Under the pieces are notes generated by a model. The model did not search any database. It was not told where the DNA came from and saw only the letters and a list, made by a program, of their open reading frames with translations. Made by a program: the position numbers and the translations under genes. A stretch of 36,291 nt of DNA. It comes from Chiloscyllium plagiosum (taxonomy: Eukaryota). Shown here in pieces: positions 1,598 to 30,005 of this stretch. Location: NCBI RefSeq assembly GCF_004010195.1, contig NC_057719.1:180599-216889 (forward strand), given 5' to 3'. The first letter of the stretch is position 1; each line of letters opens with the position of its first letter.

Positions 1598-2010
1598 ACC
1601 CGCCGCCTGGAGGAAAAATGCCTTATATTACGCCTTGGGACCCTGCAACCACATGGGATAAATGTGGATTTCAAGAGCTTCCACATTTCCCCTTTCCCCA
1701 CATTATTCCAGTCCCAAGCCTCCAACTCGGCTCTGACCTGTCCATCACTTTTCTCATCTATCTGCTCCACTCCCCCCTCTGACCTATCACCTTCTCCCTC
1801 AGCTTTGTTCACCTATCGCTTTCTTAGTTACCTTCCTCCCAATCCCACCCCCGTCCCATTTATCTCTCAGCCCCCTGTCCCACAAGCCTCATTCCTGATG
1901 AAAGGCTTATGTCCGAAACGTCAATTCTCCTGCTCCTCGGATGCTGCCTAACCTACTGTGCTTTTCCAGCAACACACTCTCAACTCTGATCTCCAGCATC
2001 TGCAGTCCTT
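1598..2010 (+). mobile_element. Penelope-like element 3' fragment (GIY-YIG C-terminus, pseudo-LTR with hammerhead, tail)
   Basis: From 1598 translates TRRLEEKCLILRLGTLQPHGINVDFKSF, typical of a PLE endonuclease end; followed by the terminal repeat shared by the short inserts in this window. Confidence 0.8.
1895..1922 (+). ncRNA. Minimal hammerhead ribozyme motif, helix II weakened
   Basis: CTGATGA A AGGC TTAT GTCC GAAA CGTC. Confidence 0.6.
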
Positions 2011-2334
2011 TTTCCTCGATGTAGAGAGGATGTTTTGTTTTATATAAGAATTAAGAATAAGTGTTCACTGTTTAAAATTAGGCATCAATTGTTAAAATTG
2101 AGATGAGGTGAACTGACATGGACTGCAATTAGACTTTTGACAGTGTTACATGGAGACTGATCAAGAACGTTAGAGCCCATGGGATCAAGGGCAATTTGCC
2201 AAATTAGATCCAAAATTGCTTTAGTGACAGGAGGCAGATGTTTTTTGTGACTGGAGGACTGTGTCTAATGGTGTATGTAGGGTTTGGTGCTGGCTTCCTT
2301 GCAGATTGTTGTACGTTTTAATGTTCAAGACATG

Positions 2335-3190
2335 GTTTGTTTGTTGGATAGAGTCAAACTCCAATATTAGTTTGTTTCTTCATATGCTACTGTACAGAGC
2401 AGAACTGCTTTAGGGACTGTATGTATATAAAGATATTTTTAATGAATAAAATATATATTTTTGAAATAAAACGAAAAGGTGGTTGATGCAGAACTTGGTG
2501 TTCCCTGGGACAAGCACTGAGACAAATGTCGACGTGCAAACAAGACCATCAACTCGGTGAAAGACACTTTTTGGTCTGCCTAAAACTTGTTTGCCTTCCA
2601 GAGCAAGGATTTGACCTCAACTAGGTGTAGTAGGCTGACACATTAAGATCCAGGACTATATGCTGAGGGATGCAGTAAAGCTTGTGGCAGCTGCAGCCCA
2701 GGTGCAGTGGGGAAAGACCACTGTCTGTCTGAGGTCTGCCAACCAAAGTATAATTGATTTGATTTATTGTTGTCACATGTATCTAAATACAGTGAAGAGT
2801 TTTTTTTGTGAGCAGTACAGGAAGATCATAACAAGCAAGGACATATAGTTCATAGAGCGCTTAGACAGCGAAGCATATAAGGTTATGGCTGCGCAGGAGG
2901 TGCATAAAGCAAGATCAACATTATTTGAAGTTAGAGAGGTACATTCAACAATCTAACGGAAATCTATTCGGTATTGGAACCTCCCAGTGCCTCAAATATA
3001 CGTAAATGACATGTTGCGTAAGTAATGAATCCTTTGGGTTTGTTTGCTGGAACTGTCAGGATAGTCAAACTCCAACGTTCGTTAAGTTCTCCATATACTA
3101 AGCATGTTTAGTAATTAGTGCTTTAGATTCACTGCATTAGTGATTATGTATATAAAGATTTTTATGGATAAAGTATATTTTTGAAATAAA
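2335..3190 (+). mobile_element. Degraded Tx1/L1-group LINE 3' fragments with two copies of the 3' end
   Basis: About 2548-2727 encodes INSVKDTFWSA..LLRDAVKL.AAAAQVQWGKTTV-like ORF2 end; 2335-2470 and 3038-3190 are similar and both end ATAAA.TATATTTTTGAAATAAA. Confidence 0.5.
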
Positions 3191-3843
3191 GTGCTTGATG
3201 ACTGGCACAAATACAGTAGGTTAAAGGTGCTGTTTTTGTGCTGTAAAATTCAGACTAGGTGAAATGTTTTCGCAGGATGTCATGAGTCTTTGGAACTTTC
3301 CCTGAAAAGATGATAGTAGCAGAATCCTTGAATATTTTTAACGCCTAGTTGGATAAATTCTTGTGAAGCAAAGGGTGTGAATGGTGATTGAGGTAGGTAA
3401 GAAAAATTTGAGATTACAAACAGATCAACCATGATTTTATTGAATGACAGAGTAGGCTCAAGCAGCCAAAAGACGACGTCTTTGTTCATTCTACCTGTTG
3501 TGTTGCAGTAAGCTCAAAGAAAGTAGTTACCTTAGAAAAGTAACTACTTAGAAAACCTTGGATTTGAGACATCATCAAGTTTGTCTGAGCAAAATTTGAA
3601 TCCATCAGCTGAATAGCCTTAACTGACATATTTGCACATAAATGAAATGCTATCATCTCTTTCTTATAATCTTTCCATCTATGCATTGATACATTAATGG
3701 TAAATGTAGGTTCATCAAATGTGATCTTGAATTGATTATTAGGGATGTATCCAGGAGCTATTAATTGGTCTGCATTATTTCAAATAATTGTTTCACTTTA
3801 TTTTACAGTCTTCAAAAGTACTTGCTCATATCACCTCCAGGAA

Positions 3844-4107
3844 ATGGACTGTGATTCCCACGATCTAAAGGAGTCAATGTTTAATAATTTCAGTGATGTT
3901 GCAGATTGGGAGGAGAGAGACTTTGCTGGGGCAGAGGTGAAGGATATGAGAGTGGAGGCGGAGGCAGTGGTCAATGATGTCAACTTTGCTGTTCGTCACA
4001 TGGCTGTCTCGAAAAGCCTCCCAATTGGAGAAGATGTTGCCTACATTAATGTAGAAACAAAAGAAGGAAACAGATACTGTCTTGAGCTAACTGAAGCAGG
4101 ACTCCGG
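3844..4107 (+). CDS. GSKIP: GSK3B-interacting protein, coding exon 1 (88 codons)
   Basis: MDCDSHDLK...[18 protein letters not shown]...[25 protein letters not shown] matches vertebrate GSKIP; candidate acceptors end at 3808 and 3840; donor GTGAGA at 4108, phase 0. Confidence 0.96.
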
Positions 4108-5149
4108 GTGAGAAGAGCAACTGACATACCAGCTAATACAAAAATAGCTTTTAATCGGGGTTAATGATCCTGTGTCTCACTTAATTTTTACTACTTTATT
4201 GCCTCTTAATGATGGCTTTTACACATTTGACTTGTAAGGCCACAATGATGTTTCTTAAACATGTCTTGCAATCAGGAGATGGTGGAATAGTTCTAATTAT
4301 ACTCGATTACTTATCCAAAGGCCCAGGCTAATGCTGTCACCAAGGCAGCAGGTAGAATTTAACTTCAGTTAATAAAATCTGAAATATTCAGATGTGAAAG
4401 AGATATGGTGTGAAAGCAGGGATATGGCCTTGATATAGAGGATCAGCCATGGTCAGCATGAGTGACATAGCAAGCTCAAAGGGCCAAATGGCCTACTCCT
4501 GCTTCTGGTTTCTGTAAGGTCCTGATGGATCTTTTTTATTGGGTAAGTTAACAATAAATTGTCTCTGGTGTTAAAGGAGTTAAAATCCAGAGGTTACAGA
4601 TTTATGGTGATTTGCAAAGGAACCAGCGGTAAGATTAGAAAAATAAATCCAGCAAATTGTTGTGATCTGAAAAGCTCCTAAACGCAAATGCAACAGTAAC
4701 TTTCAAAGAACAATTCGAGAAATACTTGAAGGAGAAAATTTTGAAGGGCTGTGGGAAAAGATCATGTGGGACATGTAATGTGGGATTATCCCCCAGATCT
4801 AAAGGAATTGATGTTTCGTCATTACAGCAACCATGAGTGTTTTCAACTGAGAGACTCTTAAGGCATAAATATTTAGGATATGAGAGCCATGGCTTTGAGA
4901 AAATTGGATTAATTGAAAAGCTTTTTCTTGGATGTGTGGTGATGTTGGTTTAGTCCAGAAAGGGTGTCTGTTCTGAACTGGTATGTTATTTGGGGGATTT
5001 GTGGTGAAGGTTACAGGTTGGTGTGTTATTTGGGCAAGTATTATATTGGTTTGTGAGATGAAACATTTTGGGTTTTGAGTTTGCAGCATACTGCACTGAG
5101 TGGACAAAGTAATTTACTTTGCATCTAATCTTTTTTTTTCCTCTTCCAG

Positions 5150-5308
5150 GTGGTAGCTTATGGCTTTGACAAGGTGGATAAATCACTGTCTATGCAGTAC
5201 CATGAAACCATTTACTCTCTCCTGGACTCACTCAGCCCCGCATATCGTGATGCATTTGGTAATGCACTTCTGCAGAGACTCGAAGCTTTAAAAAATGTAC
5301 AGGAATGA
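5150..5308 (+). CDS. GSKIP: GSK3B-interacting protein, coding exon 2 (52 codons + TGA)
   Basis: Polypyrimidine tract and CAG ending 5149; [52 protein letters not shown] includes the GSK3-binding region. Confidence 0.96.
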
Positions 5309-5931
5309 AAGGCCTAACTCTTGCTCCTTGTGATGACATTTTTCAACATATTTTCTAATGTTCTGGACCAAACGTACAGGACAAGAGGTGACTCTCATCC
5401 CACAGAAAATTGGTGAATTGTTTGTTATTTTTCATGTTCACACAGCAGTGTAGTTGGGATCCACATTCTTGTAGAATTTCATACCTCCTCATTCCTACAG
5501 AAAGAGAGGGAGGATGTTTGTAAGTTCCATTGCTGTAACAGAGCTGAAACTGGTACAGTCCCTTTCAGAAATCAGTCTGTATTATTGCAGCACTGTTGAT
5601 AAAGCACAGGCAACAGGAGGGTGCCTTTGACCCATGACTATGTAAAGGGCAATGGACATTGTCCAGACTAGGTTTCTTGGTGAGAGAGAAGCAAGTGACC
5701 CCAGTGTTCAGGTCAGGCCATCATGTGTCTGGTAACTTTGAGCTTCTCCCAACTTTCTCATTTAAAAATGTTGTTTCATTTTACACATTGTACTTTGACT
5801 TGTTAATTTAGGAAGAACACCTTCCTGTGCTATTAAATTGTGAAGTGCAGGTCGAACCTCTGGAGTAACAGATTCCAAAGTCAGAAAATTCAACCACTTC
5901 AAAAAAAAATTAATGTATGTTTTATGAAAAT

Positions 5932-5937
5932 AATAAA
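5932..5937 (+). terminator. Candidate GSKIP polyadenylation signal
   Basis: AATAAA about 620 nt after the stop, followed by T-rich sequence; ATTAAA also at 5832. Confidence 0.5.
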
Positions 5938-6279
5938 ATATTTTGGACGCAGTTTACTCTGCTCTTCTGTACTGAACATTCATTAATTGTGAGGGTTTTT
6001 AGTTTTATAAAAATTGTCGAACGCCTTACTGAAGTCCATATAGGTCACATCTACTGCTCTGCCTTCATCAATCTTCTTTGTTACTTCTTCAAAAAACTCA
6101 GTCAAGTTTGTGAGACATGATTTCCCACACACAAAGCCATGTTGACTATCCCTAATCAGTCTTTGAGTTTCCAAATACATGTGCATCCTGTCCCTCAGGA
6201 TTCCCTCCAACAACTTGCCCACCACCGAGGTCAGGCTCACTGGTCTATAGTTCCCTGGCTTGTCCTTACCACCATTCTT

Positions 6280-8059
6280 AGAACAAAGAACAATACAGCG
6301 CAGAACAGGCCCTTTGGTCCTCAATGTTTCGCCGACCTGAACTATTCTCAGCTCATCCCCCTGCACTATCCCAAAATCATCCATGTGCTTATCTAAGGAT
6401 AGTTTAAATCTCACTAATGTGGCTGAGTTAACTACGTTAGCGGGTAGTGCATTCCATGCCCTTACCACTCTCAGCGTAAAGAACCTGCCTCTGACATCTG
6501 TCTTAAATCTATCACCCCTAAATTTGTAGTTATGCCCCCTCGTACATGCTGATGTCATCATCCTAGGAAAAAGATTTTCACTGTCTACTCTATCTAATTC
6601 TCTGATCATCTTGTATGACTCTATCAAATCCCCTCTGAGCCGCCGCCTTGCCAATGAGAACAGGTTCAAGTCTCTCAGCCTTCCCCCATAAGACCTTCCC
6701 TCCAGACCAGGCATCATCCTGGTAAATATCCTCTGCATCTTTTCCAATGCTTCCACATCCTTCATGAAATATGGGGACCAGGACTGTACACAATATTCCA
6801 ACTGTGGCTGCACTAGTGTTTTGTCTAGTTGCAGTATGATATTGCGGCTCCGGAATTCAATCCCTCTACAAATGAAACCTAACACACCGTATGCCTTCTT
6901 AACAGCACTGTCCGCCTGGGTAGCAACTGTCTGGGATCTATGTACATGGACTCCAAGATCACTCTGCACATCCACACTACCAAGAATCTTTCCATTACTC
7001 TGCCTTCCTGTTATTCTTTCCAAAGTGAATCACCTCACATTTAGCTGCATTGAACTCCATTTGCCACCTCTCAGCCCAATTCTGCAGTTTATCCAAGTCA
7101 CCCTGCTCCCTGTAACATTCTTCTACACTGTCCACTATCCACCGACTTTAATGTCTGCAAATTTACTAATCTATCCACCTATGCCTGTATCTAAATCTTT
7201 TATAAAAATGACAAACAGCAGTGGTCCCAAAACAGATCCTTGTGGCACACCACTAGTAACTGGACTCCAGGCTGAATTATTTTCCATCAACCACCACTCG
7301 CTGCCTTCTTTCAGAAAGCCAGTTTCTAATCCAAATTGCTAAATCACCCTCAATTCCATGCCTCTGCATTTTTTGGATTTGGGTTAGATTACATTACAGT
7401 GTGGAAACACAACAAGTCCACACCGACCCGCCGAAGCGCAACCCACACATACCCCTAACGTAACACTACGGGCAATTTGGCATGGCCAATTCACCTGACC
7501 TGCACATCTTTGGACTGTGGGAGGAAACCCACGCAGACACGGGGAGAACGTGCAAACTCCACACAGTCAGTCGCCTGAGGTGGGAATTGAACCCCAGACT
7601 TTGGCGCTGTGCGGCAGCAGTGCTAACCACTGGGCCACCGTGCCACCCAACAGCCTACCATGTGGAACCTTATCAAAGGCTTTACTGAAGTCCAGGTACA
7701 CCACGTCAATTGCCCTACCCTCATCTTCTCAAAACTCAAGGAGGTTTGTGAGACATGACTTACCTTTGACGAAACCATGTTGACTATCTGGAATCAAACT
7801 GTTGTTTGCTAGATGATTATAAATCTTATCTCTTATAATCCTTTCCAAAACCTTTCATACAACAGAAGTAAGGCTCACTGGTCTATAATTACCTGGGTCA
7901 TCTCTATTGCCCTTCTTGAACAAGGGCACAACATTTATAATCCTCTAGTCCTCTGGTACTAAACCTGTAGACAATGACAACTCAAATATCAATGCCAAAG
8001 GCTCTGCTATCTCCGCCTTAGCTTCCCAGAGAATCCTCAGATGAATCCCATCCGGCCTA
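6280..8059 (-). mobile_element. Second CR1 nested in the first
   Basis: RT to C-terminus (QLEYCVQSWSP, RVVRAWNALP) with a TGTTCT-type tail at 6280; interrupts the host ORF2. Confidence 0.85.
7375..7648 (-). mobile_element. HE1/V-SINE-like tRNA-derived SINE inside the nested CR1
   Basis: Head GGGTGGCACGGTGGCCCAGTGGTTAGCAC (A box), GGTTCAATTCC (B box), core GTGTGGAGTTTGCACGTTCTCCCCGTGTCTGCGTGGGTTTCC. Confidence 0.88.
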
Positions 8060-10218
8060 TCTTAAACAGTGGCACCACGTTTGCCAACCTCCTGTCTTCC
8101 AGTATCTCACCTGTGACTATCGATGATACAAATATCTCAGCAAGAGGCCCAGCAATCACTTCTCTAGCTTCGCACAGAGTTCTCGAGTACACCTGATCAG
8201 GTCCTGGGGATTTATCCACCTTTAACAGTTTCAAGACATCCAGCACTTCCTCCTCTGTAATCTGGACATTTTGCAAAATGTCACCATCTATTTCCCTACA
8301 GTCTATATCTTCCATATCCTTTTCCACAGTAAATACTGATGCAATATACTCATTTACTATGTCCCCCATTTTCTGCAGCTCCACATAAAGGCTGCCTTGC
8401 TGATGTTTGAGGGGCCCTATTCTCTCCCTAGTTACCCTTTCGTCCTTAATGTATTTGTAAAATTCCTTCGGATTCTCCTTAATTCTATTTGCATTAGCTA
8501 TCTCATGTCCCCCTTTTGCCCTCCTGATTTCCCTCTTATGGAAAGGTTGTTTCTTTTGTGGGAGAGTCTCGGACTAGAGGGCATAATCTCAGAACAAGGG
8601 ATTGGCCATTTAAGATAGAGGTGAAGAGTAATTTCTTCCCTTGAAGAGTCATGAATCTTTCCCACAGAGGGCTGTTGAGGCTGGGTCGTTAAGTATATTG
8701 AACGGCTGAAAGACATTTTTAATCAGTAAGATAATTGAGGATTATAGGGAAAAGACAGAAAAATGGTGATAAGATCATGGTGTGATAATCTTCAATGAAT
8801 AATCGGGTGGACTGGGCCAAAAGGTCAGCTCACCACCACCTTTTTGAGGGTAATTAGGGATGGACAAGAACTGCTAGCCTCGCCAGTGATATCCATATCC
8901 CATGAGCAAATGGCACGGTTACCACCTGTTCATCCTACACAGTCCCAAGTCCACTCTCATGGCAAGGAGAGCATCTGAACAACTGACGCTTCAGTGTGCT
9001 TGATCATGAACTAGGGACACACTCCAGGAATTTCTTACTTTGTGACATTGTCTCTGTCTTCCGTCAGTCAAGATGAGAAACCCTGTTGTGGTGAATTGTA
9101 GATTAAAAACCATTATTTACCAGTTTGTGAGAGTGTCGTAACATTTTTTCTCCAAAAAAAGAAATCACTGTTAGATTAGAGACAGAAATGGAGAGGTTAC
9201 CCTACTGGGAATTTTATATAGGCCTCCGAATAGTTCCAGAGTTGTAGAAGATAGGGTAGCAAAGACGATCCTTGATAGGAGCGCAAGTAACAGGGTAGTT
9301 GTTGTGCATGGCTTTAACTTTCCAAATATTGACTGTGAATACTATAGTTCAAGTACTTTAGATGGGTCAGTTTTGTCCAGTGTGTGCAGGGGGGTTTCCT
9401 GACACAGTATGTAGACAGGCCAACAAGGCCACATTAGATTTGGTACTGGTAATGAGCCCGGCTAGGTGTTAGACTTGGAGGTAGGTGAGCACTTTGGTGA
9501 TAGTGACCACAATTCAGTTATGTTTTCTTTAGTGATGAAAAGGGATAGGTATATACCGCAGGGCAAGAGTTATAGCTGGGGAAAAGGCAATTACAATGCG
9601 ATTAGGCAGGATGTAGGATGAGGAAAGAATCTGCAGGGGATGAACAGAATTGAAATGTGGAACTTATTCAAGGAACAGCTACTGTGGATCCTTGATAAGT
9701 ATGTACCTGTCAGGCAGGTAGGAAGTTGTTGAGCGCAGGAGCCGTGATTTACTAAGGAAGTTGAATCTCTTGTCAAAAGGAAGAAGGAGGTTTATGTTAG
9801 GATGAGATGTGAAGGCTCAGTTAGGGCGCTTGAGAATTACAAGTTAGCCAGGAAAGACCTAAAGAGAGCGCTAAGAGGAGCCAGGAGAGGACATGAGAAG
9901 TCATTGGTGGATAGAATCAAGGAAAACCACAAGGCTTTCTATAGGTATATCGGGAATAAAAGGGTGACTAATGTAAGATGAGGGCCAATCAAGGATAGTA
10001 GTGGGGAGTTGTGCACGGAGCAGAGGGGATAGGGGACGAGCTAAATTACTACTTTTCATCAGTATTCACACTAGAAAAAGACTGTTGTAGAGGAGAAGAC
10101 TGAGACACCGGCTACTAGCGTAGACGGGATTGAGGTTCACAAGGAGGAGGTGCTAGCAATTTTGGAAAGTGTAAAAATAGATAAGTCCCCTGGGCCGGAT
10201 GGGGTTTATCCCAGGATT

Positions 10219-10379
10219 GAAAATGTGTTGCTGGAAAAGCGCAGCAGGTCAGGCAGCATCTAAGGAACAGGAGAATCGACGTTTCGGGCATAAGCCCTTC
10301 AGGCCTGCTACGCTTTTCCAGCAACACATTTTCAGCTCTGATCTCCAGCATCTGCAGTCCTCACTTTCTCCTCGAAGAT
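10219..10379 (+). mobile_element. Fold-back mini-Penelope insert
   Basis: Inverted arm then sense arm plus tail; imperfect 14-bp TSD TTTATCCCAGGATT (10205-10218) / TTTATTCTAGGATT (10380-10393). Confidence 0.75.
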
Positions 10380-10509
10380 TTTATTCTAGGATTCTCTGGG
10401 AAGCCAGGGAGGAGATTGCAGAGCCTTTGGCTTTTAGCTTTATGTCATCATTGTCTACAGGAATAGTGCCAGAAGATTGGAGGATAGCAAATGTTGAAGG
10501 GGAGTAGAG

Positions 10510-10879
10510 CTGGAAATGTGTTGCTGGAAAAGCGCATCCAGGGAACAGGAGAATCGACGTTTCGGGCATAAGCCCTTCTTCAGGAATGGGGAAAGTTTGT
10601 CCAGCAGGCTAAGATAAAAGGTAGGGAGGAGGGACTTGGGGGAGGAGCGTCGGAAATGTGATAGGTGGAAAGAGGTCAAGGTGAGGGTGATAGGTCAGAC
10701 TGGGGTGGGGGCGGAGAGGTCGGGAAGAAGATCTCAGGTTAGCAAGGCGGTGCTGAATTTGATGGATTTGACTGAGACAGGGTGGGGGGACGGGAAATGA
10801 GGAAACTGGTGAACTCGGATTTCACCAGTTTCCTCATTTCCAGCTCTGATCTCCAGCATCTGCAGACCTCACTTTCTCC
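10510..10879. mobile_element. Penelope insert with inverted body and sense tail
   Basis: Perfect 15-bp TSD TGAAGGGGAGTAGAG (10495-10509, 10880-10894); 21-bp-arm hairpin at 10793-10841. Confidence 0.8.
10556..10583 (-). ncRNA. Minimal hammerhead ribozyme motif, intact core
   Basis: Reverse complement CTGAAGA A GGGC TTAT GCCC GAAA CGTC. Confidence 0.7.
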
Positions 10880-11427
10880 TGAAGGGGAGTAGAGACAACC
10901 CTGATAATTATAGACCAGTGAGCCTTACTTTAGTTGTGGATAAAGTTTTGGAAAGGGTTATAAGAGATAGGAGTTATAATCATCTAGAAAGGAATAAGTT
11001 GATTAGAGATAGTCAACATGATTTTATGAAGTGGAGGTCGTTGAGAAGGTGACCAAACAGGTGGATGAGGGTTAAGTGGGTTGATGTGTTGTATACGGAT
11101 TTCAGTAAGGCGTTTGATAAGGTTCCCCACTGTAGACTTTTGCACAAAATACAGAGGCATGGGATTGGAGGTGATTTAGTGGTTTGGATCAGAAACTGGC
11201 TAGCTGAAAGAAGACAGAGGGTGGTGGTTGATGGGAAATGTTCATCCTGGAGTTCAGTTACTAGTGGTGTGCTGCAAGGACCTTTTTTGGGTCCACTGCT
11301 GTTTGTCATTTTTATAAATGACTTGGATGAGGGCATAGAAGGATGGGTTAGTAAATTTGTGGATGACACTAAGGTCAGTGGAGTTGTGAATAGTGACAAA
11401 GGATGATGCAGGTTACAGAGGGACCGA

Positions 11428-11610
11428 GTCGAGAGTGTGGTGCTGGAAAAGTACAGCAGGTCAGGCTGCATCCGAGGAGCAGGAGAATCGACATTTTGGG
11501 TAAGAACCCTTCATCAGGAATGAGGCTTGTGAGCTGAATGGGTGGAGAGATAAATGGGAGGAGGAGGGGTTTCGGGCTGGTTGGAAGGTAGCTACTCCCT
11601 CCCATTTATG
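11428..11610 (-). mobile_element. Penelope terminal fragment with decayed hammerhead (11490-11517)
   Basis: Reverse complement CTGATGA A GGGT TCTT ACCC AAAA TGTC; helix II has T-A in place of C-G. Confidence 0.7.
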
Positions 11611-11932
11611 ACTTATCGCACTCTCAGCTACCTCTCAGCTACAGTGATATTATGGAATATACTATGGCATGAACTCCAGCTCCTTTTCAGCTCATAAAGT
11701 AAGATTCCAACAGCCTCTAAACTAAGCCAAACAATTGGAGTTTGAACCTTGGCTATCTTTTCCATATCATTAACTCTTAGTCTTTCTCCCAGGCCTCGTG
11801 TTTATAACACACCGCTCAGCATATTCCACACAGTGGAAAAAGTGAGGACTGCAGATGCTGGAGATCAGAGCTGAAAAATGTGTTGCTGGAAAAGTGCAGC
11901 AGGTCAGGCAGCATCCAAGGAGCAGGAGAATC

Positions 11933-11960
11933 AACGTTTCAGGCATAAGCCCTTCTTCAG
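11933..11960 (-). ncRNA. Minimal hammerhead ribozyme motif
   Basis: Reverse complement CTGAAGA A GGGC TTAT GCCT GAAA CGTT (G-U pair, GUU triplet). Confidence 0.6.
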
Positions 11961-11965
11961 GATTC

Positions 11966-11993
11966 CTGAAGAAGGGCTTATGCCCGAAACGTC
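11966..11993 (+). ncRNA. Minimal hammerhead ribozyme motif, intact core
   Basis: CTGAAGA A GGGC TTAT GCCC GAAA CGTC. Confidence 0.72.
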
Positions 11994-12079
11994 GATTCTC
12001 CTGCTTCTTGGATGCTGCCTGACCTGCAGCACTTTTCCAGCAACACATTTTTCATATTCCACACAGTGTTTGAAGAGTG

Positions 12080-14720: not shown

Positions 14721-14803
14721 TCCAAGAGAAAAAAAACATCATTCAATCTCAGGCCAACTGTGCCAACTGTGAAATGTACTGCCATTTCTGAATTGAGTTA
14801 AAT

Positions 14804-15010
14804 AAAAATCACACAACACCAGGTTATAGTCCAACAGGCTTGTTTGAAAGTACTAGGTTTTCAGTACTTCACCTTTGTCAAGTTTTACTATAAATTCTGT
14901 GTCCTATGATCCTGCCCCACTAGCTACCTGACGAAGGAGCAGCGGTCCAAAAGTTTGGACTTTCAAATAAACCTGTTGGACTATAACCTGGTGTTGTGTG
15001 ATTTTTAACT
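14804..15010. mobile_element. Fold-back element of a third Penelope-like family with decayed hammerhead at 14928-14957
   Basis: 48-bp inverted arms 14804-14851 / 14959-15006; CTGACGA A GGAGCAGCGGTCC AAAAG between them. Confidence 0.6.
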
Positions 15011-15012
15011 TT

Positions 15013-15093: not shown

Positions 15094-15299
15094 ATGACTT
15101 CTGAAATGGACAGTGGATGACCTAGAAATGTCATACATGCCAGACTCAGTCCAATGACTCCTGAGATGGATAGATGCCAGAAACTCTCCTGCTTGTCGAA
15201 GTTGTGTTCAGCAAGCTGACAAAATAACTTACATCGTTTCTCAGCTTCTCAGCCAACCACCAGTTCCCAATTCCTCTTCACTTTTCCTTCTCCAGGAAT

Positions 15300-15517
15300 C
15301 CACCAGAGGGAGCCTTGAGGCGGCCAGACCTGATGGGTTCAGGGCGCGCCACTCCCCCTGCTGGGGAATCCAGACTTAGTGCAGCACCTGCGTGCAGTGG
15401 CCCCTGCTGGCCGAAAGGGAGCGGTGCAGTTTCCGTATTGCAGCGCCGCCCGCTGGTGACTTGGGCGGTGGTGCAGCGGGAGCTCCGCCCCCTGGCGGCG
15501 GAGTGCCGGTGGTGCAG
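15300..15517. promoter_or_regulatory. CpG-rich cluster of five CTCF-like sites
   Basis: + CCACCAGAGGGAGC 15300-15313; - CCAGCAGGGGGAGT 15351-15364, CCAGCAGGGGCCAC 15397-15410, CCAGCGGGCGGCGC 15443-15456, CCGCCAGGGGGCGG 15485-15498; each minus site has CTGCAC 13-14 nt upstream. Confidence 0.7.
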
Positions 15518-15726
15518 TCTCCCGGCCCCATTTGTCTATGATTCAAACCCGGAAAATGGGGCTGCGCCTGGGGGGTCGTCCTGGGGCGGGGAAGGGGGGA
15601 GAGGTGGGGAAATAACCGCGGGAGGAGAACTAGGAAACACAGGACTGAAAAATACCCCATAACTAACTTCCCCGGGGAGCTATCTGGGAAAGAGTTGGAG
15701 TGGTTCCGTCATTCTGGCGGCGTGCA

Positions 15727-15799
15727 GGCTCCATAGCTCAGTGGTTAGAGCACTGGTCTTGTAAACCAGGGGTCGCGAGTTCGATCCTCGCTGGGGCCT
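15727..15799 (+). tRNA. tRNA-Thr (anticodon TGT)
   Basis: 73 nt; acceptor GGCTCCA/TGGGGCC, D arm GCTC/GAGC, anticodon arm CTGGT-CTTGTAA-ACCAG, T arm GCGAG-TTCGATC-CTCGC; Pol III TTTT at 15808-15811. Confidence 0.97.
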
Positions 15800-15942
15800 T
15801 ACTGGACTTTTACCCCTCAATTAAAGTTCCACAGATGAGGGGAACATTTTAAAACCCCCTAAAATACGACAGTCTTCATTAAGGATTGAAATACGTGTTC
15901 ACAGTCCACTGTGGCCTCACAGTCTCCTTTGACCTGGTTCAT

Positions 15943-16650: not shown

Positions 16651-16857
16651 GAGGAGAAAGTGAGGTCTGCAGGATGCTGGAGATCAGAGCTGAAAATGTG
16701 TTGCTGGAAAAGCGCAGCAGGTCAGGCAGCATCCAGGGAACAGGAGAATCGACATTTCGGGCGATTCCTGAAGAAGGGCTTATGCCCGAAACGTCGATTC
16801 TCCTGTTCCCTGGATGCTGCCTGACCTGCTGTGCTTTTCCAGCAACACATTTTCAGC
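16651..16857. mobile_element. Fold-back mini-Penelope insert
   Basis: Inverted arms, tail on the left; 13-bp TSD ACAGAGGAGAT(T/G)T (16638-16650, 16858-16870). Confidence 0.85.
16768..16795 (+). ncRNA. Minimal hammerhead ribozyme motif, intact core
   Basis: CTGAAGA A GGGC TTAT GCCC GAAA CGTC. Confidence 0.72.
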
Positions 16858-17800
16858 ACAGAGGAGATGTACCAGATGCTGCCTGGACTGGAGGGCTTGT
16901 CTTATGAAGAAAGGTTGAGTGACCTGGGGCTTCTCTGGAGAGAGAAGGAAGGGAGGTGACTTGATAGAGGTATACAAGGTAATGAGAGGCATAGATAGAA
17001 TAGATAGCCAGAGACATTTCCCCAGGGCAGAAATGGCTGTCACGAGGGTTCGTAATTTTAAGGTGACTGGAGGAATGTAGAGCTAAGTTCTTTACACAGA
17101 TTGTAGTGGGTGCGTGGAATGCATTGCCAGTGGTGGTAGTAGAGTCAGAGACATTAGGGACATTTAAGCGACTGCTGGACAAGCACGCGGATGGCAGTAA
17201 ATTGAGGGGTGTGTAGGTTAGCTTGATCCTAGATTAAGATAAATGCTCGGCCCAACATCGTGGGCTGAAGAGTCTGTACTGTGCTCTACTGTTCTATGTT
17301 CTAACTCTTCAAGATCTCTGCACTGCAGTAATTCTGGCTTGCGAAGTGCTGATTTTAATCACCACCATAGACACCCATACCTTCAGCCACCCAGGCCCTC
17401 AATTTTGGAACAAAAGCAGAAATTGTTGGAAAAACTCAGCAAATCTGGCAGTATCTGTGGGGAGAAATCAGAGTTAACCCTTCACCAAATACAAATTTTG
17501 GACACTTCTCTCTTAATTTAAGAGGCTCTTTTTGATTAAAATGCTAAAATCAAGGTGCGAGTGAGAGCCAGTGTTAATCAGCAAACACAGTCATATGTAA
17601 ATTGGATTTAGTTGAAATTGTTTTAGTTGAAGTCACAGTTTCTGAAAAGGGATATTGACAAAAATTGGGAGCTGGAATATAATGTGGAGAAATGTGAGGC
17701 AGAATAGAGGAGCAAATACTGCAGAAAGCTACAGTTCAGAATTTAGTAGCCCTTGTGCATAGTTGATAGCCTGGTGGTAATATCACTAGACAATTAAACT

Positions 17801-17991
17801 GGTAAAAACAATGACTGCAGATGCTGGAAACCAGATTCTGGATCAGTGGTGCTGGAAGAGCACAGCAATTCAGGCAGCATCCGAGGAGCAGTAAAATGGA
17901 CGTTTCGGGCAAAAGCCCTTCATCAGGAATAAAGGCAGAGAGCCTGAAGCGTGGAGAGATAAGCTAGAGGAGGGTGGGGGTGGGGAGAAAG
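17801..17991 (-). mobile_element. Penelope terminus (variant subfamily) running into the gap
   Basis: Homologous terminal repeat with a different tail. Confidence 0.75.
17899..17926 (-). ncRNA. Minimal hammerhead ribozyme motif, intact core
   Basis: Reverse complement CTGATGA A GGGC TTTT GCCC GAAA CGTC. Confidence 0.7.
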
Positions 17992-18544
17992 NNNNNNNNN
18001 NNNNNNNNNNNNNNNNNNNNNNNNNNNNNNNNNNNNNNNNNNNNNNNNNNNNNNNNNNNNNNNNNNNNNNNNNNNNNNNNNNNNNNNNNNNNNNNNNNNN
18101 NNNNNNNNNNNNNNNNNNNNNNNNNNNNNNNNNNNNNNNNNNNNNNNNNNNNNNNNNNNNNNNNNNNNNNNNNNNNNNNNNNNNNNNNNNNNNNNNNNNN
18201 NNNNNNNNNNNNNNNNNNNNNNNNNNNNNNNNNNNNNNNNNNNNNNNNNNNNNNNNNNNNNNNNNNNNNNNNNNNNNNNNNNNNNNNNNNNNNNNNNNNN
18301 NNNNNNNNNNNNNNNNNNNNNNNNNNNNNNNNNNNNNNNNNNNNNNNNNNNNNNNNNNNNNNNNNNNNNNNNNNNNNNNNNNNNNNNNNNNNNNNNNNNN
18401 NNNNNNNNNNNNNNNNNNNNNNNNNNNNNNNNNNNNNNNNNNNNNNNNNNNNNNNNNNNNNNNNNNNNNNNNNNNNNNNNNNNNNNNNNNNNNNNNNNNN
18501 NNNNNNNNNNNNNNNNNNNNNNNNNNNNNNNNNNNNNNNNNNNN
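17992..18544. other. Assembly gap (553 N)
   Basis: Run of N. Confidence 1.
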
Positions 18545-18663
18545 GGGCTTATGCCCGAAACGTCGATTCTCCTGCTCCTTGGAGGCTGCCTGACCTGCTG
18601 CGCTTTTCCAGCAACACATTTTCAGCTCTGATCTCCAGCATCTGCAGTCCTTACTTTCTCCTC
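18545..18663 (+). mobile_element. Penelope terminus emerging from the gap
   Basis: GGGCTTATGCCCGAAACGTC...CAGCATCTGCAGTCCTTACTTTCTCCTC. Confidence 0.8.
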
Positions 18664-19072: not shown

Positions 19073-19594
19073 TGCACAGTTACTGCCTTTGCTGTTTGAA
19101 TTAGTGTATCGCTGGACATCGGAGTGCATCTGGGAAAATTAACAAACAGTGAAATTCACAACTGATCTTGGAGGAACTGTTGGGCAAAGTTCACAGCACA
19201 GAATCAGATAAGTTAATCGTTGTTTTAAGTGTGGCCTACAGAGAATCTGCAGTGGTGAATAGAGTGGGTTCTTTCTTGATTATATGTTATCTTAAAGAGG
19301 TTTACAAAATTATGAGGGGCATGGATAGGGTAAATAGGCAAAGTCTTTTCCCTGGGGTCAGGGAATCCAGAACTAGAGGACATGGGTTTAGGGTGAGAGG
19401 GGAAAGATATAAAAGAGACCTAAGGGGCAACGTTTTCATGCAGAGGGAGGTACGTGTATGGAATGAGTTGCCAGAGGAAGGGGCCGGGTGCTGGCAGGTG
19501 GGACTAGATTGGGTTGGGATATCTGATCGGCATGGATGGGTTGGAACGAAGGGTCTGTTTCCATGCTGTACATCTCTATGACTATGACTCTATG
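19073..19594 (+). mobile_element. CR1 5'-UTR-like segment joined to a CR1 3' end
   Basis: 19073-19289 aligns by eye with about 27492-27718; 19290-19594 is a CR1 3' end with CTATGA repeats. Confidence 0.7.
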
Positions 19595-22680: not shown

Positions 22681-22858
22681 AAAGCCGAAAGAACCGCAGA
22701 TACTGTAAATTAGAGACAAAAATAAGAATTGCTGGAAAAGCTCAGCAGGTCTGGCAGCGTCTGAGGAAGGGTCACGTGACCTGAAACATTAACTCTGATT
22801 TCTCTCCACAGACGCTGCCAGACCTACTGAGCTTTTCCAGTAATTTCTATTTTTGTTT
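22681..22858. mobile_element. Fold-back mini-Penelope (second family) with hammerhead motif at 22761-22791
   Basis: Inverted arms about 22715-22763 / 22809-22856; CTGAGGA A GGGTC ACGT GACCT GAAA CATTA. Confidence 0.7.
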
Positions 22859-23012: not shown

Positions 23013-23159
<147 letters not shown>

Positions 23160-24080: not shown

Positions 24081-24584
24081 CCCACCCGTTTAATCCCCCA
24101 CCCACAATCCCTCAATAAAAAGGAAGGAAGTTACTGGGGTTGTAGAGGCGATGGGAACAGGATGGGACATGGTGAGGATGTGCATAAATTGTTGAAACAG
24201 CTGAGATGACTGAGAACATGCATCTAGTGGCACATGTGCGATGTTATGGCTTTATTAGTAAAGTATGAAGTACAAAAGCAAGAAAGCTCAGGTGAAGCTG
24301 CACAAAAGACAAGCTCCTCAATTGCAGCTTTGGGTCCAATTTTGGACACAGCATTTATGGAAGGGATCTATGGGCCTGGTTGGGGGCATTAGTTACATGG
24401 GGAGAGTGAGATATTCTCTTTGGAGAAGAGAAAATTGAGGGGAAATCCAATCAACACATTCAAAGTCTCCAGAGTTCTGGGCAGAGTTGTTCAAGAGAAA
24501 CTGTTTCCATTGAGGGGGGGGGGGGGCAGATTGAGAGTAGTAAAGGAGGAACAGTTGAGGTGATTGGTTAGGATTCAGGGTACA

Positions 24585-24705
24585 GTTTCCTGATGAAGGG
24601 CTTTTGCCAGAAATGTCGATTTTCCTGCTCCTCCGATGCTGTGCTTTTCCAGCACCACAGTAATCTTGACTCTAATCTCCAGCATCTGCAGGACCTACTT
24701 CTGCC
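24585..24705 (+). mobile_element. 121-bp mini-Penelope insert with decayed hammerhead at 24590-24617
   Basis: 16-bp TSD TAGGATT(C/T)AGGGTACA (24569-24584, 24706-24721). Confidence 0.8.
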
Positions 24706-24951
24706 TAGGATTTAGGGTACACTGATACTGTGGGGAAACAGTCAACTGAGGCTTTCCAAAGAAGATTGGATAATTATCTGAAGAGAAAAATATTGTAGGG
24801 ATGGGGAGGGGACTCAGTGAATCACTCTCACATATAACTAGTACACACTGCTGAGGCACCAACATAACTGCTCTATGATTCTCATCTTTAATCGACAAAA
24901 CATAATCAGGAATAAATGCTACTCCTTTTAACATATAACTCAACAACTTAC

Positions 24952-25062: not shown

Positions 25063-25248
25063 CTGTGAGAAAGGGATCATGACCACAATCACACCGTTAG
25101 AAAACTGAAATGAGGTTTTCAATCACAATCCATTCCTGACAGGGACACAGTTCGGAACCAGACAGCAAGTGCCACAGGATTTGAATATCAATGCAATGAA
25201 TTAGGAGGCATCTTGAAAATGTTTTATGAGTGGTGTGCTTAGAGTTTC

Positions 25249-25446
25249 ACTCTGCATCTAACCCTGTGCTGTCCCTGTCCTGGGAGTGTTTGATGGGGAC
25301 GGTGTAGAGGGAGCTTTACTCTGTATCTAACCCTGTGCTGTCCCCGTCCTGGGAGTGTTTGATGGGGGACAATGTAGAGAGAGCTTTACCCTGTATGTAA
25401 CTCTGTGCTGTCCTGTCCAGGGAGTGTTTGATGGGGACAGTGTAGA
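25249..25446. repeat. 69-bp tandem repeat, about 2.9 copies
   Basis: Units start at 25249, 25318, 25388: ACTCTGTATCTAACCCTGTGCTGTCCCTGTCCTGGGAGTGTTTGATGGGGACAGTGTAGAGGGAGCTTT. Confidence 0.92.
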
Positions 25447-25753: not shown

Positions 25754-25783
25754 TTCCTGTTCCTGTTCCTGTTCCTGTTCCTG
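25754..25783. repeat. (TTCCTG)5 microsatellite, probably an expanded LINE tail
   Basis: Five perfect units after a decayed CR1-like 3' end. Confidence 0.85.
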
Positions 25784-25865
25784 TGAGATGGTTTGTGTTA
25801 TATGCGTGTCATAACATGATGTGTTTGGTGCCACGCAAATGCATCCACACCAATCAGAGCTGCAC

Positions 25866-25950
25866 CTGATTCATATACAGCAATTGGCCAATGTCATCAG
25901 CAGTAACATCACTCTTCAACCCAACAACTTCATCCACTTCTGCTTGCAAC
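25866..25950 (-). CDS. CYP46A1: CYP46A1-like exon (85 nt)
   Basis: (CT)n acceptor, donor GTGCAG; LQAEVDEVVGLKSDVTADDIGQLLYMNQ; phases fit both neighbours. Confidence 0.92.
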
Positions 25951-26364
25951 CTGAAGGAGAGAGAGAGAGAGATCGCATTATCCAGGAACACAGGAGTATC
26001 CTGGGAATAAACTTACATTACTATAGTTTCCTTGCAGCTGAGGTTGTTAAGGAGTGATCTGGACAGGATCTTAATGTGGAGGAAATGAGGGGAAATAGGG
26101 TGGATCTTCCCCTACAGTGGCAGAATCTCCAACAAGGAGACTAACGCGGAGGACTGGAGCTCATTGAAGCAAACACAGGGGACGTTTCATCACACGACTC
26201 GTGTGAATGTGGCAACTATGTCTGCATGAGATTCGAGGCAGTAAGTCAGTATGAAGATGGAGGATTGTTTGGGAATTGTAGATACTGTAGCTAAGGAGAA
26301 AAGGTAAAGATCTAGGATGAAAGAGACAGAGAGTGTGCACAACTTCGTAACTCCTCAATAAAAT

Positions 26365-26620
26365 ATTTTAGAAGCTGTTGTAATATTGGAATTGCAGCAC
26401 CCAATTTTCACACAGCAAACTCCCACAAACAGCAACGGGATTGTGATCAGATCATCTGGTTTTGAGAGCTGTCGGTTTAGAAATGAAGGATAAATATTTG
26501 TCAGGGGAGAATTGTTCTGTTCTTCTGCAAAATAGTGGCTGTGAGGGGGAATCTTTGTCAATGACCCGAGAGGTAGATAGGGCCTTAGTTTAACCTTTCA
26601 TGCAAAGACACAAGCTCCAA
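26365..26620 (-). mobile_element. Old Deu-domain SINE
   Basis: Reverse complement resembles 12180-12385 (AATATTTATCCTTCA, TTGCTGTTTGTGGGAG.TTGCTGTGTGAAAATTGG). Confidence 0.6.
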
Positions 26621-26779
26621 CATGACTGTTTGAGAGTTTCAGCCTGGATTATAGGTACAAGCCTCTGGCAGGGACTGAGACTCCTAGCTTTCTACCAGAA
26701 TCACAAAGGGGGTCATTTGGCCCATCATCTCTGCACGAGCTGTTTGCATCGGCAAGCTGGCATTGCAATTTTCCTGTCT

Positions 26780-27487
26780 TGTCCCCATATCCTTGCACAT
26801 TGTTTCTTGTTAAATAATCATGCAGTGCTCTCTTCAATGCTTCAATTGTACCTGCTTCCACATTTCCATAGAGTACATTCCAGAACTGAGCCATCATTTT
26901 GTGGAAAAAATTATTTCTCACACTGTGTTGCTTCTTTTGCAAATCACTTTAAATCTGTGCCCTCTCATTCTTTATCCTTTTAAAAGTGGGATCAGTTTCC
27001 ATTATCCATTCTATCCAGATTGTTCATCATTTTGAAAATGTTGATAGATCTCCTCTTAGCCTTCTCCTCTGCGCAAAAACATTCCCAACTTCTCCAAGCT
27101 ATGAAGGTTTTCATTCTTAGAATCATTCTTGTAAACCTCTTTTTCACCTCCAATGTGTTTACATCTTTTCAATAATGTGGTGCCTACAAATCTACACAAT
27201 ACTGAAGTCTAAATGGAGCCTAGCAAGAGTCTTGTACAAGCTCACCACCATCTCCTTTCCCTTCTCCGTATACTCCTATTAATAAAGCTAAGGATACTGC
27301 ATGCTTTTATAACTGCTCTCTCCCTTGTCCTGCCACCTCCAATGATGTGTGCATCTACACACCCAGCTCCCTCTGGTCCTGAACCTTCCTTAGTGTTATA
27401 TCCTCTATTTTACATTGTCCACCAACATTCTTTGACGAAATTGCATCACCTCACATTTATCTGTATTAAATCACATTTGCCATTGTG
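26780..27487 (-). mobile_element. Decayed CR1 3' portion
   Basis: RNNFFHK...WNVLYGNVEAGTIEALKRALHDYL. Confidence 0.7.
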
Positions 27488-27491
27488 ATCC

Positions 27492-28765
27492 TGTGCAGTT
27501 ACTGCCTTTGCTGTTTGAATTCATGTATTGCTGGACATTGGAGTGCTTCTGGGAAAATGAACAAACAGTGAAATCCACAACTGATCCTGGAGGTACCTGT
27601 TTGGGAGAAGTCACAGCACAGAGACAGATATGTAAATAGTTTTAAGTGCAGCCTTGGGGCCTTGCTGTAAGTCTGCAGTAGTGGATAGATTGGGTTCTTT
27701 CTTGATTATATATTTTATTGAGATATGTCTCTTGATTAAACTTGAAAATATAAGTCATAAGTATTAAGTTAGACTGGGGCAGTGTTTTGTACAGGAATAA
27801 GACGGTGCTATTTTCTGGGTCTGTAGATTGAAAGAAGCAAAAATGGCCCTTAAGTAGGGAGATGCTCTTCATGTCAGATGTGGCAGTTTAGGGAGAGTTT
27901 ATGTGTTACTGAGGATTATATCTGCAATAAATGCCGTTGGTTGCGAATCCTATCAGATCAAATGGAACAATTGGAGCAACAGTTGGAGGCAATGAGGAAT
28001 TTACAAGAGCAAGGGGGCATGATGGATGGCAGTTATAGGAAGGGGGGAAAGTCACAGATACAGTCACATAGATGGGTTAACTCCAGGAAAGGTAAGAGAG
28101 GTAGGCAGGTAAAGCAGGAGTCTTCTGTGGCTATCCCCTTTTCAAAGAAGTATGCTGTTCTGGAAAATGTAGGGGGTGATGGATTCTCAGGGGAATGTAG
28201 CACGAACAGCCAAGTTTCTGGTATTGAGACTGGCTGTAATGCAGTGAGGGGTACGTCAGGTTCCAATGATCGACTGTGTTCAGGGACTCTCTAGTCTGAA
28301 GCACAGACAGACGTTTCTGTGGCCAGCAGTGAAAAATCAGAATGGTGTGTTGCTTCCCTGGTGCCAGGATCAAGGATGTCTCAGAGAGGGTGCAGCATGT
28401 TCTCAAGGGGGAGAGGGGCCAGCAGGAGGTCATTGTCCACATTGGAACCAATGACATAGGAAGGGAAAAGGTTGAGATTCTGAAGGGAGAGTAAAGAGTG
28501 TTAGGCAGGAATTTAAAAAGGAGGTCCTCACGAGTAGTTAAAACTGGATTACTCCTGGTGCTTTGAGCGAGTGAGGGCAGGAATAGGAGGATAGAGCAGA
28601 TGAATGCTTGGGCTGAGGAGCTGGTGTATGAGAGAAGGATTCACATTTTTGGATCTTTGGAATCTCTTCTGGGTAGAAGTGACCTGTACAAGAAGGACGG
28701 ATTGCACCTGAATCAGAAGGGGACTAATATACTGGCAGGGAGATTTGCTCGAGCTGTTATGAGGG
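27492..28765 (+). mobile_element. CR1 5' half: 5' UTR and disrupted ORF1 (zinc finger, coiled coil, SGNH esterase)
   Basis: CSSCQMW...DYICNKC, heptad QMEQLEQQLEAM, CCFPGARIKDVSERV, VIVHIGTND, DLYKKDGLHLNQKG. Confidence 0.85.
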
Positions 28766-28938
28766 TAGTCAATTGCTTGGTTACAGTTTCTCCTGCTCGC
28801 CTTTCATTCCAGTCTATCCTGCCCAGCTCTGCTCTTGCCCTAGTGAGGTCAGCCCGACGCCAATTGATGTTTGTTACTGTGGGTTGCCCATTGTCATTCT
28901 CCATCATCATCCTGAATCTTACAATGATCACTATCTCC
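28766..28938 (-). mobile_element. Inverted CR1 ORF2 fragment (end of endonuclease)
   Basis: GDSDH then INWRRADLTRARAELGRIDW. Confidence 0.7.
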
Positions 28939-29196
28939 TAACTCTTCTTCAGGCAAGGGATTTCAAGCCACTGATCGATAACTATCACTACTGGGCTCTT
29001 TTAACTTACACAAAGCCTCTTAATTTGAAGTCAAATTCTGACCTTTACTCTCAAATTGACATTGTAAAAGATGTACCAATTAGAATTTTGACTGTGAAAA
29101 ATTTCCAGATACACTTACTTGACGTTCAGTTCCTTTCACTCCCCCCGCCCCAAGTCTCTGCCCCAACTCCCCAATCCACTCACCCACTGTCCTTAC

Positions 29197-29269
29197 TTTT
29201 TTCTTATTTCAGGTTGCCGTGTCAACTCCATGATGACAAAAGCAATCAGATTGGCTGTTGTCTCTTGAC
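29197..29269 (-). CDS. CYP46A1: CYP46A1-like I-helix exon (73 nt)
   Basis: Acceptor CTCACAG, donor GTAAGG; GQETTANLIAFVIMELTRQPEIRKK completes AGxET. Confidence 0.93.
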
Positions 29270-29924
29270 CTGTGAGGAACAAAACACTCGTCAACTGGAA
29301 CGCTGCTCCGGGAACCAAATATGGGAAGGCTTTGCACAGGGGCAGAAGAGATTGACTAAAATCCTACCAGGGACGAGGGACTTCAGTAACCTCGAGAGAT
29401 TGGAAAAGCGGCAATTGTTTTCCTTAGAGTAGAGAAGGTTAAAACGAGATTTAACAAAAAGTTTTCAAAATCAGAAAAGATTTTGGTAGAGTCAACAAGG
29501 AAACACTATCTCCACTTGCAAGAGAGTCCGAGTTAAATAATTGGCAAAGAACCAAGCTGGCAGTTTGGATCCAGGGAATTGTTAGTGCTTGGAAGTTCCT
29601 GCTGTAAAGTGCAGTTGACATTGGGCCATTGAATAGATTCGAGGCTGAGTCAGATGGATTTTTCATCCTCAAGGAAGATGAGAGTTCCAGGGCCAGGTGG
29701 GAGAGAGGAGCTGAGGTCACAGGCAGGCTTGATGTTATTGATTGATGAATTTGGCTCAGGAAGGCTGAATGGTCTGCTTTGGCTCCCAATCCATCCTCGA
29801 TGTCCTTGTGACTTGAAGGAGGGCTTTACAGTGGAGGGAATTCGAAGGGATACTGGGGGGATTACAGGACCAATCTGTTCTCTTTAGGGTGAAAGTTGGA
29901 GTAACAAGCCCAGAGAACCCTGGA

Positions 29925-30005
29925 GTTCTGAGGAAGGGTCACTCAACCCAAAACATTAACTCTGATTTCTCTCCACACATACTGCCAACTACTTCCAATT
30001 TTTGT
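29925..30005 (+). mobile_element. 81-bp mini-Penelope insert (second family) with decayed hammerhead at 29928-29958
   Basis: Perfect 16-bp TSD CCCAGAGAACCCTGGA (29909-29924, 30006-30021). Confidence 0.75.

Follow-up and report, generated by a model that had tools for sequence, protein, structure and literature searches.

The stretch of DNA considered here, 36,291 nucleotides (nt) of Chiloscyllium plagiosum contig NC_057719.1 (assembly GCF_004010195.1, positions 180,599 to 216,889 of the forward strand), which we call the window, contains scattered copies of the minimal hammerhead ribozyme motif. The preliminary description had listed 13 such copies and attributed them to three families of Penelope-like elements (PLEs). 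Read copy by copy, all 13 positions proved to hold a whole or partial motif, with 10 copies in family A, two in family B (22761 and 29928) and one in family C (14928). Their identity as minimal type I hammerheads of PLE pseudo-long terminal repeats (pLTRs) is upheld by remnants of PLE proteins directly upstream of families A and C, and the tail of family B is homologous to that of family A.

In three family A copies the core, helix II, the ACGT palindrome, the GTC and the first helix I pair are all intact. These are 10556..10583 (-), which has its own TATA-like box and a 15-bp target duplication (10495-10509, 10880-10894); 11966..11993 (+), the short-tail arm of an inverted pair (11872-12054), with a 16-bp target duplication (11820-11835, 12053-12068); and 16768..16795 (+), which begins G-ATTC, has an inverted partial partner at 16652-16762 and is flanked by a 13-bp target duplication with one mismatch. 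Intact cores had been claimed for a fourth copy as well, and both boxes and the GTC are indeed present in these 4 of the 13; in the fourth, 17899..17926 (-), a member of the TTTT-loop subfamily with its own TATA-like box, the core is intact and the first helix I pair is broken, C standing opposite C. The minus-strand copies at 10556, 11490, 11933 and 17899 are listed by their N17 ends, and their C3 positions are 10583, 11517, 11960 and 17926, respectively.

The remaining copies are decayed or truncated to various degrees. At 1895..1922 (+), the 10.1-11.1 pair is broken, and a TATA-like TTATCT (1860..1865, +) precedes the predicted start A(-3) by 31 nt. Only the 3' half is present at 10278..10300 (-), where part of the first box is missing at the junction with an inverted tail (10304-10373, +). 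The copy at 11490..11517 (-) has AAAA in place of GAAA; that at 11933..11960 (-), the long-tail arm of the inverted pair with 11966, has both core boxes, G10.1-U11.1 and GTT; and the solo stub at 24590..24617 (+), in which the 10.1-11.1 helix II pair and the palindrome are broken, has a 16-bp target duplication with one mismatch (24569-24584, 24706-24721). At 18545..18564 (+) only the 3' half is readable, the first box falling inside an N gap of 553 bases (~17992-18544); this gap lies between two oppositely oriented family A copies and probably hides an inverted PLE structure. The family C motif (14928..14956, +) is decayed (AAAA, TTT), with TATAAA at 14889-14894 and an inverted tail partner at 14803-14851. 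Both family B motifs have CATT, a broken palindrome: one (22761..22790, +) has an inverted tail partner at 22716-22760, and the other (29928..29957, +) is a solo stub with AAAA and a 16-bp target duplication (29909-29924, 30006-30021) that overlaps the first base of the stub. Target duplications of 13-16 bp thus flank five window insertions, which are therefore complete and not deletion remnants.

The strict motif, CTGANGA-N-helix-GAAA with a helix of at least 3 bp, occurs 6 times in the window, compared to 0.4 +/- 0.6 (maximum 3) in 200 dinucleotide shuffles; the CTGANGA box alone is at chance level (32 versus 28.0 +/- 5.4). An Rfam scan of the window at E<=1 gave 8 matches, none of them to a hammerhead family, and the microRNA-like matches correspond to inverted hammerhead pairs.

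The carrier element is represented in the window by the C-terminal remnant of a GIY-YIG endonuclease frame at 1598..1717 (+), upstream of a family A pLTR, which was detected by tblastn (60% over 43 aa, E 4e-6) with the 736-aa reverse transcriptase-endonuclease (RT-EN) frame of locus L032 as the query. Relatives of this remnant elsewhere in the genome reach 5' into the reverse transcriptase, and an RT piece gave 51,272 first-look candidates genome-wide. The L032 frame contains RT motifs followed by a Cys-rich linker and, at its C terminus, GIY-YIG, with a Pfam match to RVT_1 (E 1.7e-6). A Pfam match to GIY-YIG (E 2.7e-4) was also obtained, and both matches are below the curated cut-off. Walking 5' from the family A RT, the motif was found again directly before the start of the open reading frame (ORF). 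Because the motif both follows the RT-EN frame and precedes the ORF start, at the pLTR-to-ORF junction, the unit is pLTR-ORF-pLTR, with a length of about 3.5 kb estimated from overlapping copies; an element search started from an inverted arm yielded more inverted arms only. The main family A frame starts ~170 nt after C3. As an aside, a hydrophobic frame of ~50 codons begins at an ATG in family A loop II (e.g. 11980-11982) and runs over the start of the main ORF; by eye, the ATG is present in most family A subfamilies and absent in the TTTT-loop subfamily.

In 4 of the 5 loci fetched anew, the family C motif lies 500-800 nt downstream of its own GIY-YIG remnant, with the same type of linker, and the family C endonuclease aligns with that of family A (36% over 74 aa, E 2e-9); a Pfam search with three family C protein pieces gave no match for any of them. 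For family B, no ORF was traced upstream, and the tie to PLEs is the tail homology. The hallmarks of endonuclease-bearing (EN+) PLEs, namely 5' truncation, an inverted partner, an optional tail and a target duplication, are all seen here. A Cys-rich linker is described as a mark of Neptune and Nematis PLEs (PMC8557442), and clade placement, taken from the CxxCxxC linker motif alone, would put families A and C with the Neptune-type EN+ PLEs.

Beyond the window, from which it is absent, the genome contains a fourth hammerhead family, D, with T at 9.1 and a 6-bp helix II (L207:8962, L196:5832 and L114 ~1290-1400). At L114, the motif comes after an endonuclease-like tail of a different type, which we take to be possibly of the Poseidon type. 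To compare the families, we tallied the pairs position by position across every fetched locus (305 rows for A, 33 for B, 18 for C, 11 for D1 and 15 for D2); family E (4 rows) was left out as too decayed, and position counting replaced a MAFFT alignment of 20 motifs in which families C and D were misaligned. The majority lines of families A-D all have the CUGANGA and GAAA boxes around helix II, and U16.1-H17. Helix I comprises 2-4 pairs, with a U-U at the third position in family A; in the order A, B, C, D1, D2, its first pair is C-G, T-A, C-G, A-T and A-T, that is, three different pairs among five families, and its second is T-A, T-A, A-T, C-G and C-G. Helix II opens with G10.1-C11.1 as the majority pair in all five, and the inner pairs differ. 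The extra base between 9 and 10.1 is A in 290 of 305 family A rows and T in family D. The helix III palindrome is ACGT in A, B and D1 and AGCT in C, with CpG-type decay in many copies. Helices I, II and III thus covary between families, a pattern rather than a significance test, given the few lineages.

Covariation of helix II had been pointed out before, and between families the position counts confirm it; within family A, the GGGT/ACCC helix of the 11490 copy is weak as an example. We rejected this case as covariation: there are ~150 such sites compared to 70,555 exact family A sites, as two independent mutations would give, the estimate of ~150 deriving from the 10 of the first 100 matches listed, for a pattern with 1,489 matches, that share the 12-nt geometry of 11490. 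In predicted minimum-free-energy folds of monomers, no three-way junction formed. A cofold of two monomers pairs them intermolecularly over the palindrome region, in a program that cannot represent the dimer ribozyme. The first 17 nt of the construct 11955-12010 are predicted to fold into a 7-bp hairpin over CUGAAG, which would make this construct a poor test piece.

The surmise that the genome holds a very large ribozyme family is borne out by counts over the 3.56-Gb assembly. A generic pattern requiring both boxes and two closing G-C pairs has 180,095 sites (control 49), and the exact family A, exact family C and family-B-type patterns have 70,555, 18,482 and 1,489 sites, respectively (control 0 for each). 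A sample of 1.4 Mb, made up of 140 pieces of 10 kb each from set positions along 14 contigs, contains 122 strict motifs versus 12 in the reversed sequence, a net density of ~80 per Mb. From this sample, ~3 strict matches would be expected in a stretch the size of the window compared to the 6 found, about twice the genome average, and the idea that the window is a special cluster is accordingly dropped. The largest published hammerhead count that we compared is 126,247, for the axolotl; the figure of 180,095 exceeds it, in a rough comparison, as the search definitions differ.

Exact family A sites are equally frequent on both contig strands. Among 149 sampled family A copies, the core is kept in 58, and the core, helix II, palindrome and first helix I pair together in 27. 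Decay in these copies is mostly of the CpG type and affects core and flanks alike; therefore, selection acted on the source elements, and not visibly on the copies, most of which are broken or likely inert in place.

The stubs are separate insertions with target duplications of 8-19 bp, often with an inverted partner, and most copies are 90-135 bp long. Their 3' ends cluster at ~+76..+96 and +127..+135 from C3 (short and long tail); two preferred 3' ends of a PLE have been tied to two internal RT start sites (PMC11167929). Among the 168 sampled copies that carry a core, 89 stand alone, with no neighbour up to 1 kb away in their stretch; the others are arranged head-to-head and inverted (66), direct (10) or tail-to-tail (3). 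Within the window, 11933/11966 and 16762/16768 are inverted head-to-head pairs and not tandems, and neither a direct pair with two intact motifs nor a tandem array of the motif was found. The pair at 11872-12054 is predicted to fold into one hairpin (-118.5 kcal/mol, z -19). The suggestion that these ribozymes cleave as dimers therefore needs qualification: paired copies do occur, and they are mostly inverted, with long predicted hairpins that bury the core, rather than the tandem dimers thought to be needed. Candidates for such cleavage in cis, and for small circles, are the internally deleted copies L112 and L116 (also L119, L131 and L137), with two direct hammerheads separated by ~560-1,200 nt; each of the two begins at the first bases of the ribozyme in L112 and L116. 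Two other peculiarities of the copies were noted. In L137, L120 and L125, at +120..+136 from C3, the long-tail end meets a pyrimidine run and AG, resembling a splice acceptor, and no splice joint matching that end was listed among the RNA reads on the family A junction. L293, L295 and L297 have a short duplicated front end (TCCT-G-ATTCC), as if RT had re-annealed in the first box at the end of the RNA.

In a family A reference panel from which inverted structures were removed, 55 of 95 copies at risk begin at -7..+1, a rate of 0.064 per nt, five to seven times that at +10..+26 (0.009) or -30..-8 (0.012); a further 28 of 123 at risk begin at +2..+9, mostly at inverted junctions. Starts at the cleavage site fall below the flanking rates (3 of 152 at +27..+32), and therefore cleavage did not make the 5' ends of the stubs. 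The 11 of 157 starts first counted at +27..+31 lay at the anchor edge, and their number dropped to 3 of 152 with a further anchor. In family C, 26 of 41 copies at risk begin at -12..+1.

TATA boxes sit about 30 nt before the initiator A. In 72 of 98 element-contiguous, pyrimidine-rich family A upstreams, TTAT[CT]T occurs 30-32 nt before A(-3), with 14 lacking it, and this spacing is kept across family A subfamilies with different spacers. In family C, 9 of 10 hexamer matches place TATAAA 37-40 nt before C3, that is, 30-32 nt before A(-7). Three family B upstreams, inspected by eye, also show TATA-like runs. With the identity of the motifs unchanged, the shared 5' end could instead reflect a site that the endonuclease prefers to nick, or microhomology, at the ATT just ahead of the core; stalling of RT at the ribozyme fold could also produce it. 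The endonuclease of an anole PLE favours 5'-ATT-3' near the ORF-pLTR junction (PMC11167929), and several stubs have 2-3 nt (GAT, ATT) in common with their target duplication. A nick or a stall would, however, leave unexplained both the box held at 30-32 nt across subfamilies with differing spacers and the family C TATAAA at the same distance, in a family without ATT there, and we regard this explanation as unlikely.

The base preceding the motif bears on the same question. Genome-wide, and excluding sites with G one base further out, ATTC is preceded by G at 9,134 sites and by A at 4,231, a G share of 0.68 versus 0.40 expected from composition; the element itself carries C or T there. In the fetched loci, none of 100 element-contiguous copies has G before ATTC, compared to 13 of 44 stubs that are solo or inverted; this count omits 15 rows in which element sequence lies at a gap, none of them with G. 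An untemplated G has been attributed to copying of the cap for L1 and SVA (PMC3287187). The explanation by nicking or stalling can account for the G without a cap, since families A and B have C at position 1.5 and a one-base fold-back on helix I could add it; against nicking or microhomology, 3 of 6 such G's lie outside the target duplication.

The starts and arrangement of the copies also speak to the possibility that the short units form a non-autonomous family of their own, a retrozyme or something SINE (short interspersed nuclear element)-like, and multiply from their own transcripts or circles. The very uniform length of 130 bp and the possession of target duplications would fit such a family, as would the internally deleted L112 and L116 with two direct motifs ~560 nt apart, and a derivation of retrozymes from PLEs has been reported (Li et al. 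2026, 10.64898/2026.07.22.740005). The window, however, has no tandem arrays of the motif, only 10 of 168 sampled copies are direct, core-start stubs lack the upstream box, no copies are permuted at the cut site, and every subfamily is found also with PLE sequence upstream. We give this possibility hardly any credence.

The RNA evidence comes from one raw, fragmented poly(A) single-cell run, from an organism that may differ from that of the assembly; 2,045 reads were placed on the family A junction and 4,000 on the family C pLTR. In the latter (L324:2251-2271), which has AATAAA/ATTAAA, poly(A) follows 12-15 nt later in 1,655 of the 4,000 reads, beginning 12 nt past AATAAA in 1,003 of them and 15 nt past it in 652. 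Read depth does not fall across the family C cut site, where cut 3' pieces of ~27 nt would go unseen. These reads show that family C RNA exists uncut and polyadenylated. Host genes could acquire poly(A) sites from stubs of this family.

Could a sizeable share of the dispersed copies be active ribozymes that cut host transcripts, in trans via the palindrome or with the assistance of proteins, giving tens of thousands of functional sites? The number of exact family A sites, the 27 of 149 sampled copies that keep all the elements listed above, and the presence of hammerhead sequences in poly(A) reads all point that way. Against it stand the equal counts on the contig strands, the CpG-type decay common to core and flanks, the arrangement of copies (of 168, 66 are paired head-to-head, with the core predicted to be buried, 89 lack a neighbour and 10 are direct), the inactivity of monomers in published tests (PMC4209133) and, as a weak point, the absence of a drop in read depth at the cut site. 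On balance, this appears highly improbable.

The motifs are minimal type I hammerheads in PLE pLTRs, and we consider it probable that most copies are inert stubs, reverse-transcribed from the uncut, capped 5' end of the RNA. The transcription start would be an initiator A located 3-8 nt ahead of C3, with a TATA or TATA-like box ~30 nt upstream. RT would initiate within the RNA, at the tail, as has been shown for the anole PLE, and would copy up to the cap, which would leave the extra G on the stub; a stub starting at the capped site would then have neither a TATA-like box nor a direct partner. For the anole PLE, an internal RT start at the tail, unprocessed RNA as the dominant substrate and protein-assisted cleavage have been reported, and insertion in vitro needs no cleavage (PMC11167929).

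Several observations weigh against this account. No intact full-length element was found among 20 RT-bearing loci, the longest sense frame being 736 aa. The family A box reads TTATCT and not TATAAA, and the family C start peak is broader (0.045 versus 0.030 per nt upstream). The G lies inside the target duplication in 3 of 6 G-solo stubs with a readable duplication, and a target preference would give the same. The G sites sampled number 20, of which 6 are solo and 14 are accompanied by an inverted partner that, in at least 2 cases, can itself supply the G (20 sampled A sites comprise 11 inverted, 8 solo and 1 direct); in family C, the extra G is seen in 3 of 13 stubs versus 0 of 10 element-contiguous copies. 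No pile of read starts or ends was found on the family A junction or the family C pLTR, a weak test. In published assays, minimal hammerhead monomers remained uncut and dimer cleavage of a schistosome minimal hammerhead was low (PMC4209133), and 1 of 9 Xenopus dimers was cleaved (Li et al. 2026, 10.64898/2026.07.22.740005).

A fuller version of the capped-RNA account assigns the ribozyme a role in the source elements only. There, two terminal copies on one RNA would pair via the ACGT (or AGCT) palindrome, probably assisted by the element's protein, and the cut after GUC (CUA) would take off the 3' end and, together with the cap, the first 32 nt; trimming at both ends would yield a unit-length RNA that could be circularised, which agrees with the circular-template proposal for PLEs (PMC4209133). 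[quoted passage not shown] We offer this scheme tentatively, as one that falls somewhat short of an even chance of being right.

The ~180,000 copies constitute a large natural record of transposition products. On the capped-RNA reading, this record indicates that the RNA copied into stubs was uncut, in agreement with the anole result in vitro. Stubs point to the exact start site and, in family C, also to the poly(A) site, which makes the model of cap and tail trimming directly testable. In annotating this genome, one should by default take a hammerhead that looks intact for one of tens of thousands of stubs left by retroelements.

The window contains several other features. At 3949-4110 (+), an exon-like segment (Pfam GSKIP_dom, E 3e-16) is followed by a GT donor-like site; the rest of the gene was not located, and part of the window may be intronic to the GSKIP gene. 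A tRNA-Thr(TGT) gene (15726-15800, +) lies just 3' of a GC-rich region (~15230-15700). Decayed RT fragments of the non-LTR, long interspersed nuclear element (LINE) type are present at 5983-8573 (-), 330-1300, 11053-11406, 16853-17233, 19150-19590 and 31350-32140, and several hammerhead stubs sit inside such fragments. A tandem repeat with three copies of a 69-bp unit (25241-25446) is unrelated to the ribozyme.

Searches of the literature on Penelope hammerheads in sharks and cartilaginous fish, which did not extend to Lunse et al. or to the supplements of Li et al., turned up no description of such an expansion; one chondrichthyan is among the genomes that Li et al. cover for tandem retrozymes (10.64898/2026.07.22.740005). 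Papers on PLE start sites and untemplated bases, Lunse et al. not among them, do not place the start at the first bases of the ribozyme. In the available parts of the published work, a TATA box and an Inr (initiator)-like sequence are noted in a rotifer PLE pLTR (PMC3846280), the transcription start is given as 46 bp before the intron in the D. virilis Penelope promoter paper, and the role of the hammerhead in PLEs is called unclear (PMC8557442).

Among known systems, the canonical type I hammerhead of the Rfam model, with a stable helix I and loop contacts, is not what is found here. Non-LTR retrozymes (PMC7229834; Li et al. 2026) resemble the present copies in having very numerous type I hammerheads (126,247 in the axolotl), palindromic helix III and a link to PLEs; they are described as tandem 150-450 bp repeats with canonical loop-loop hammerheads and circular RNAs, unlike the dispersed or inverted minimal-motif stubs in this genome, where the window has no array of direct tandem units and few sampled copies (10 of 168) have a direct neighbour within 1 kb. 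The reported Neptune EN+ PLEs (Craig et al. 2021, PMC8557442; Arkhipova et al. 2013, PMC3846280) share the order of RT and C-terminal GIY-YIG, the CxxCxxC linker, 5' truncation, the inverted partner, the tail and target duplications. The anole Poseidon element PAc (Frangieh et al. 2024, PMC11167929) likewise has the motif at the pLTR-ORF junction, two preferred 3' ends leading to the tail and, in the data presented, no RNA ends at the cut site; its ORF starts in stem II, in contrast to the main family A frame ~170 nt after C3 and its Neptune-type Cys linker.

The closest resemblance is to the minimal PLE hammerheads of Cervera and De la Pena (2014, PMC4209133), which are described with CUGANGA and GAAA boxes, the extra base between 9 and 10.1, G10.1-C11.1, palindromic 15.2-16.2, a short helix I, location in pLTRs, several covarying families per genome, and mostly single copies with close pairs on opposite strands. 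The differences are a helix II of 4-6 bp here, and numbers: ~4,000 copies in the coelacanth and ~9,000 in Xenopus compared to 180,095 here, under differing search definitions. The parts of that paper available to us place no motif relative to a start site and describe no extra G. The hammerheads of this genome belong to the kind published in 2014.

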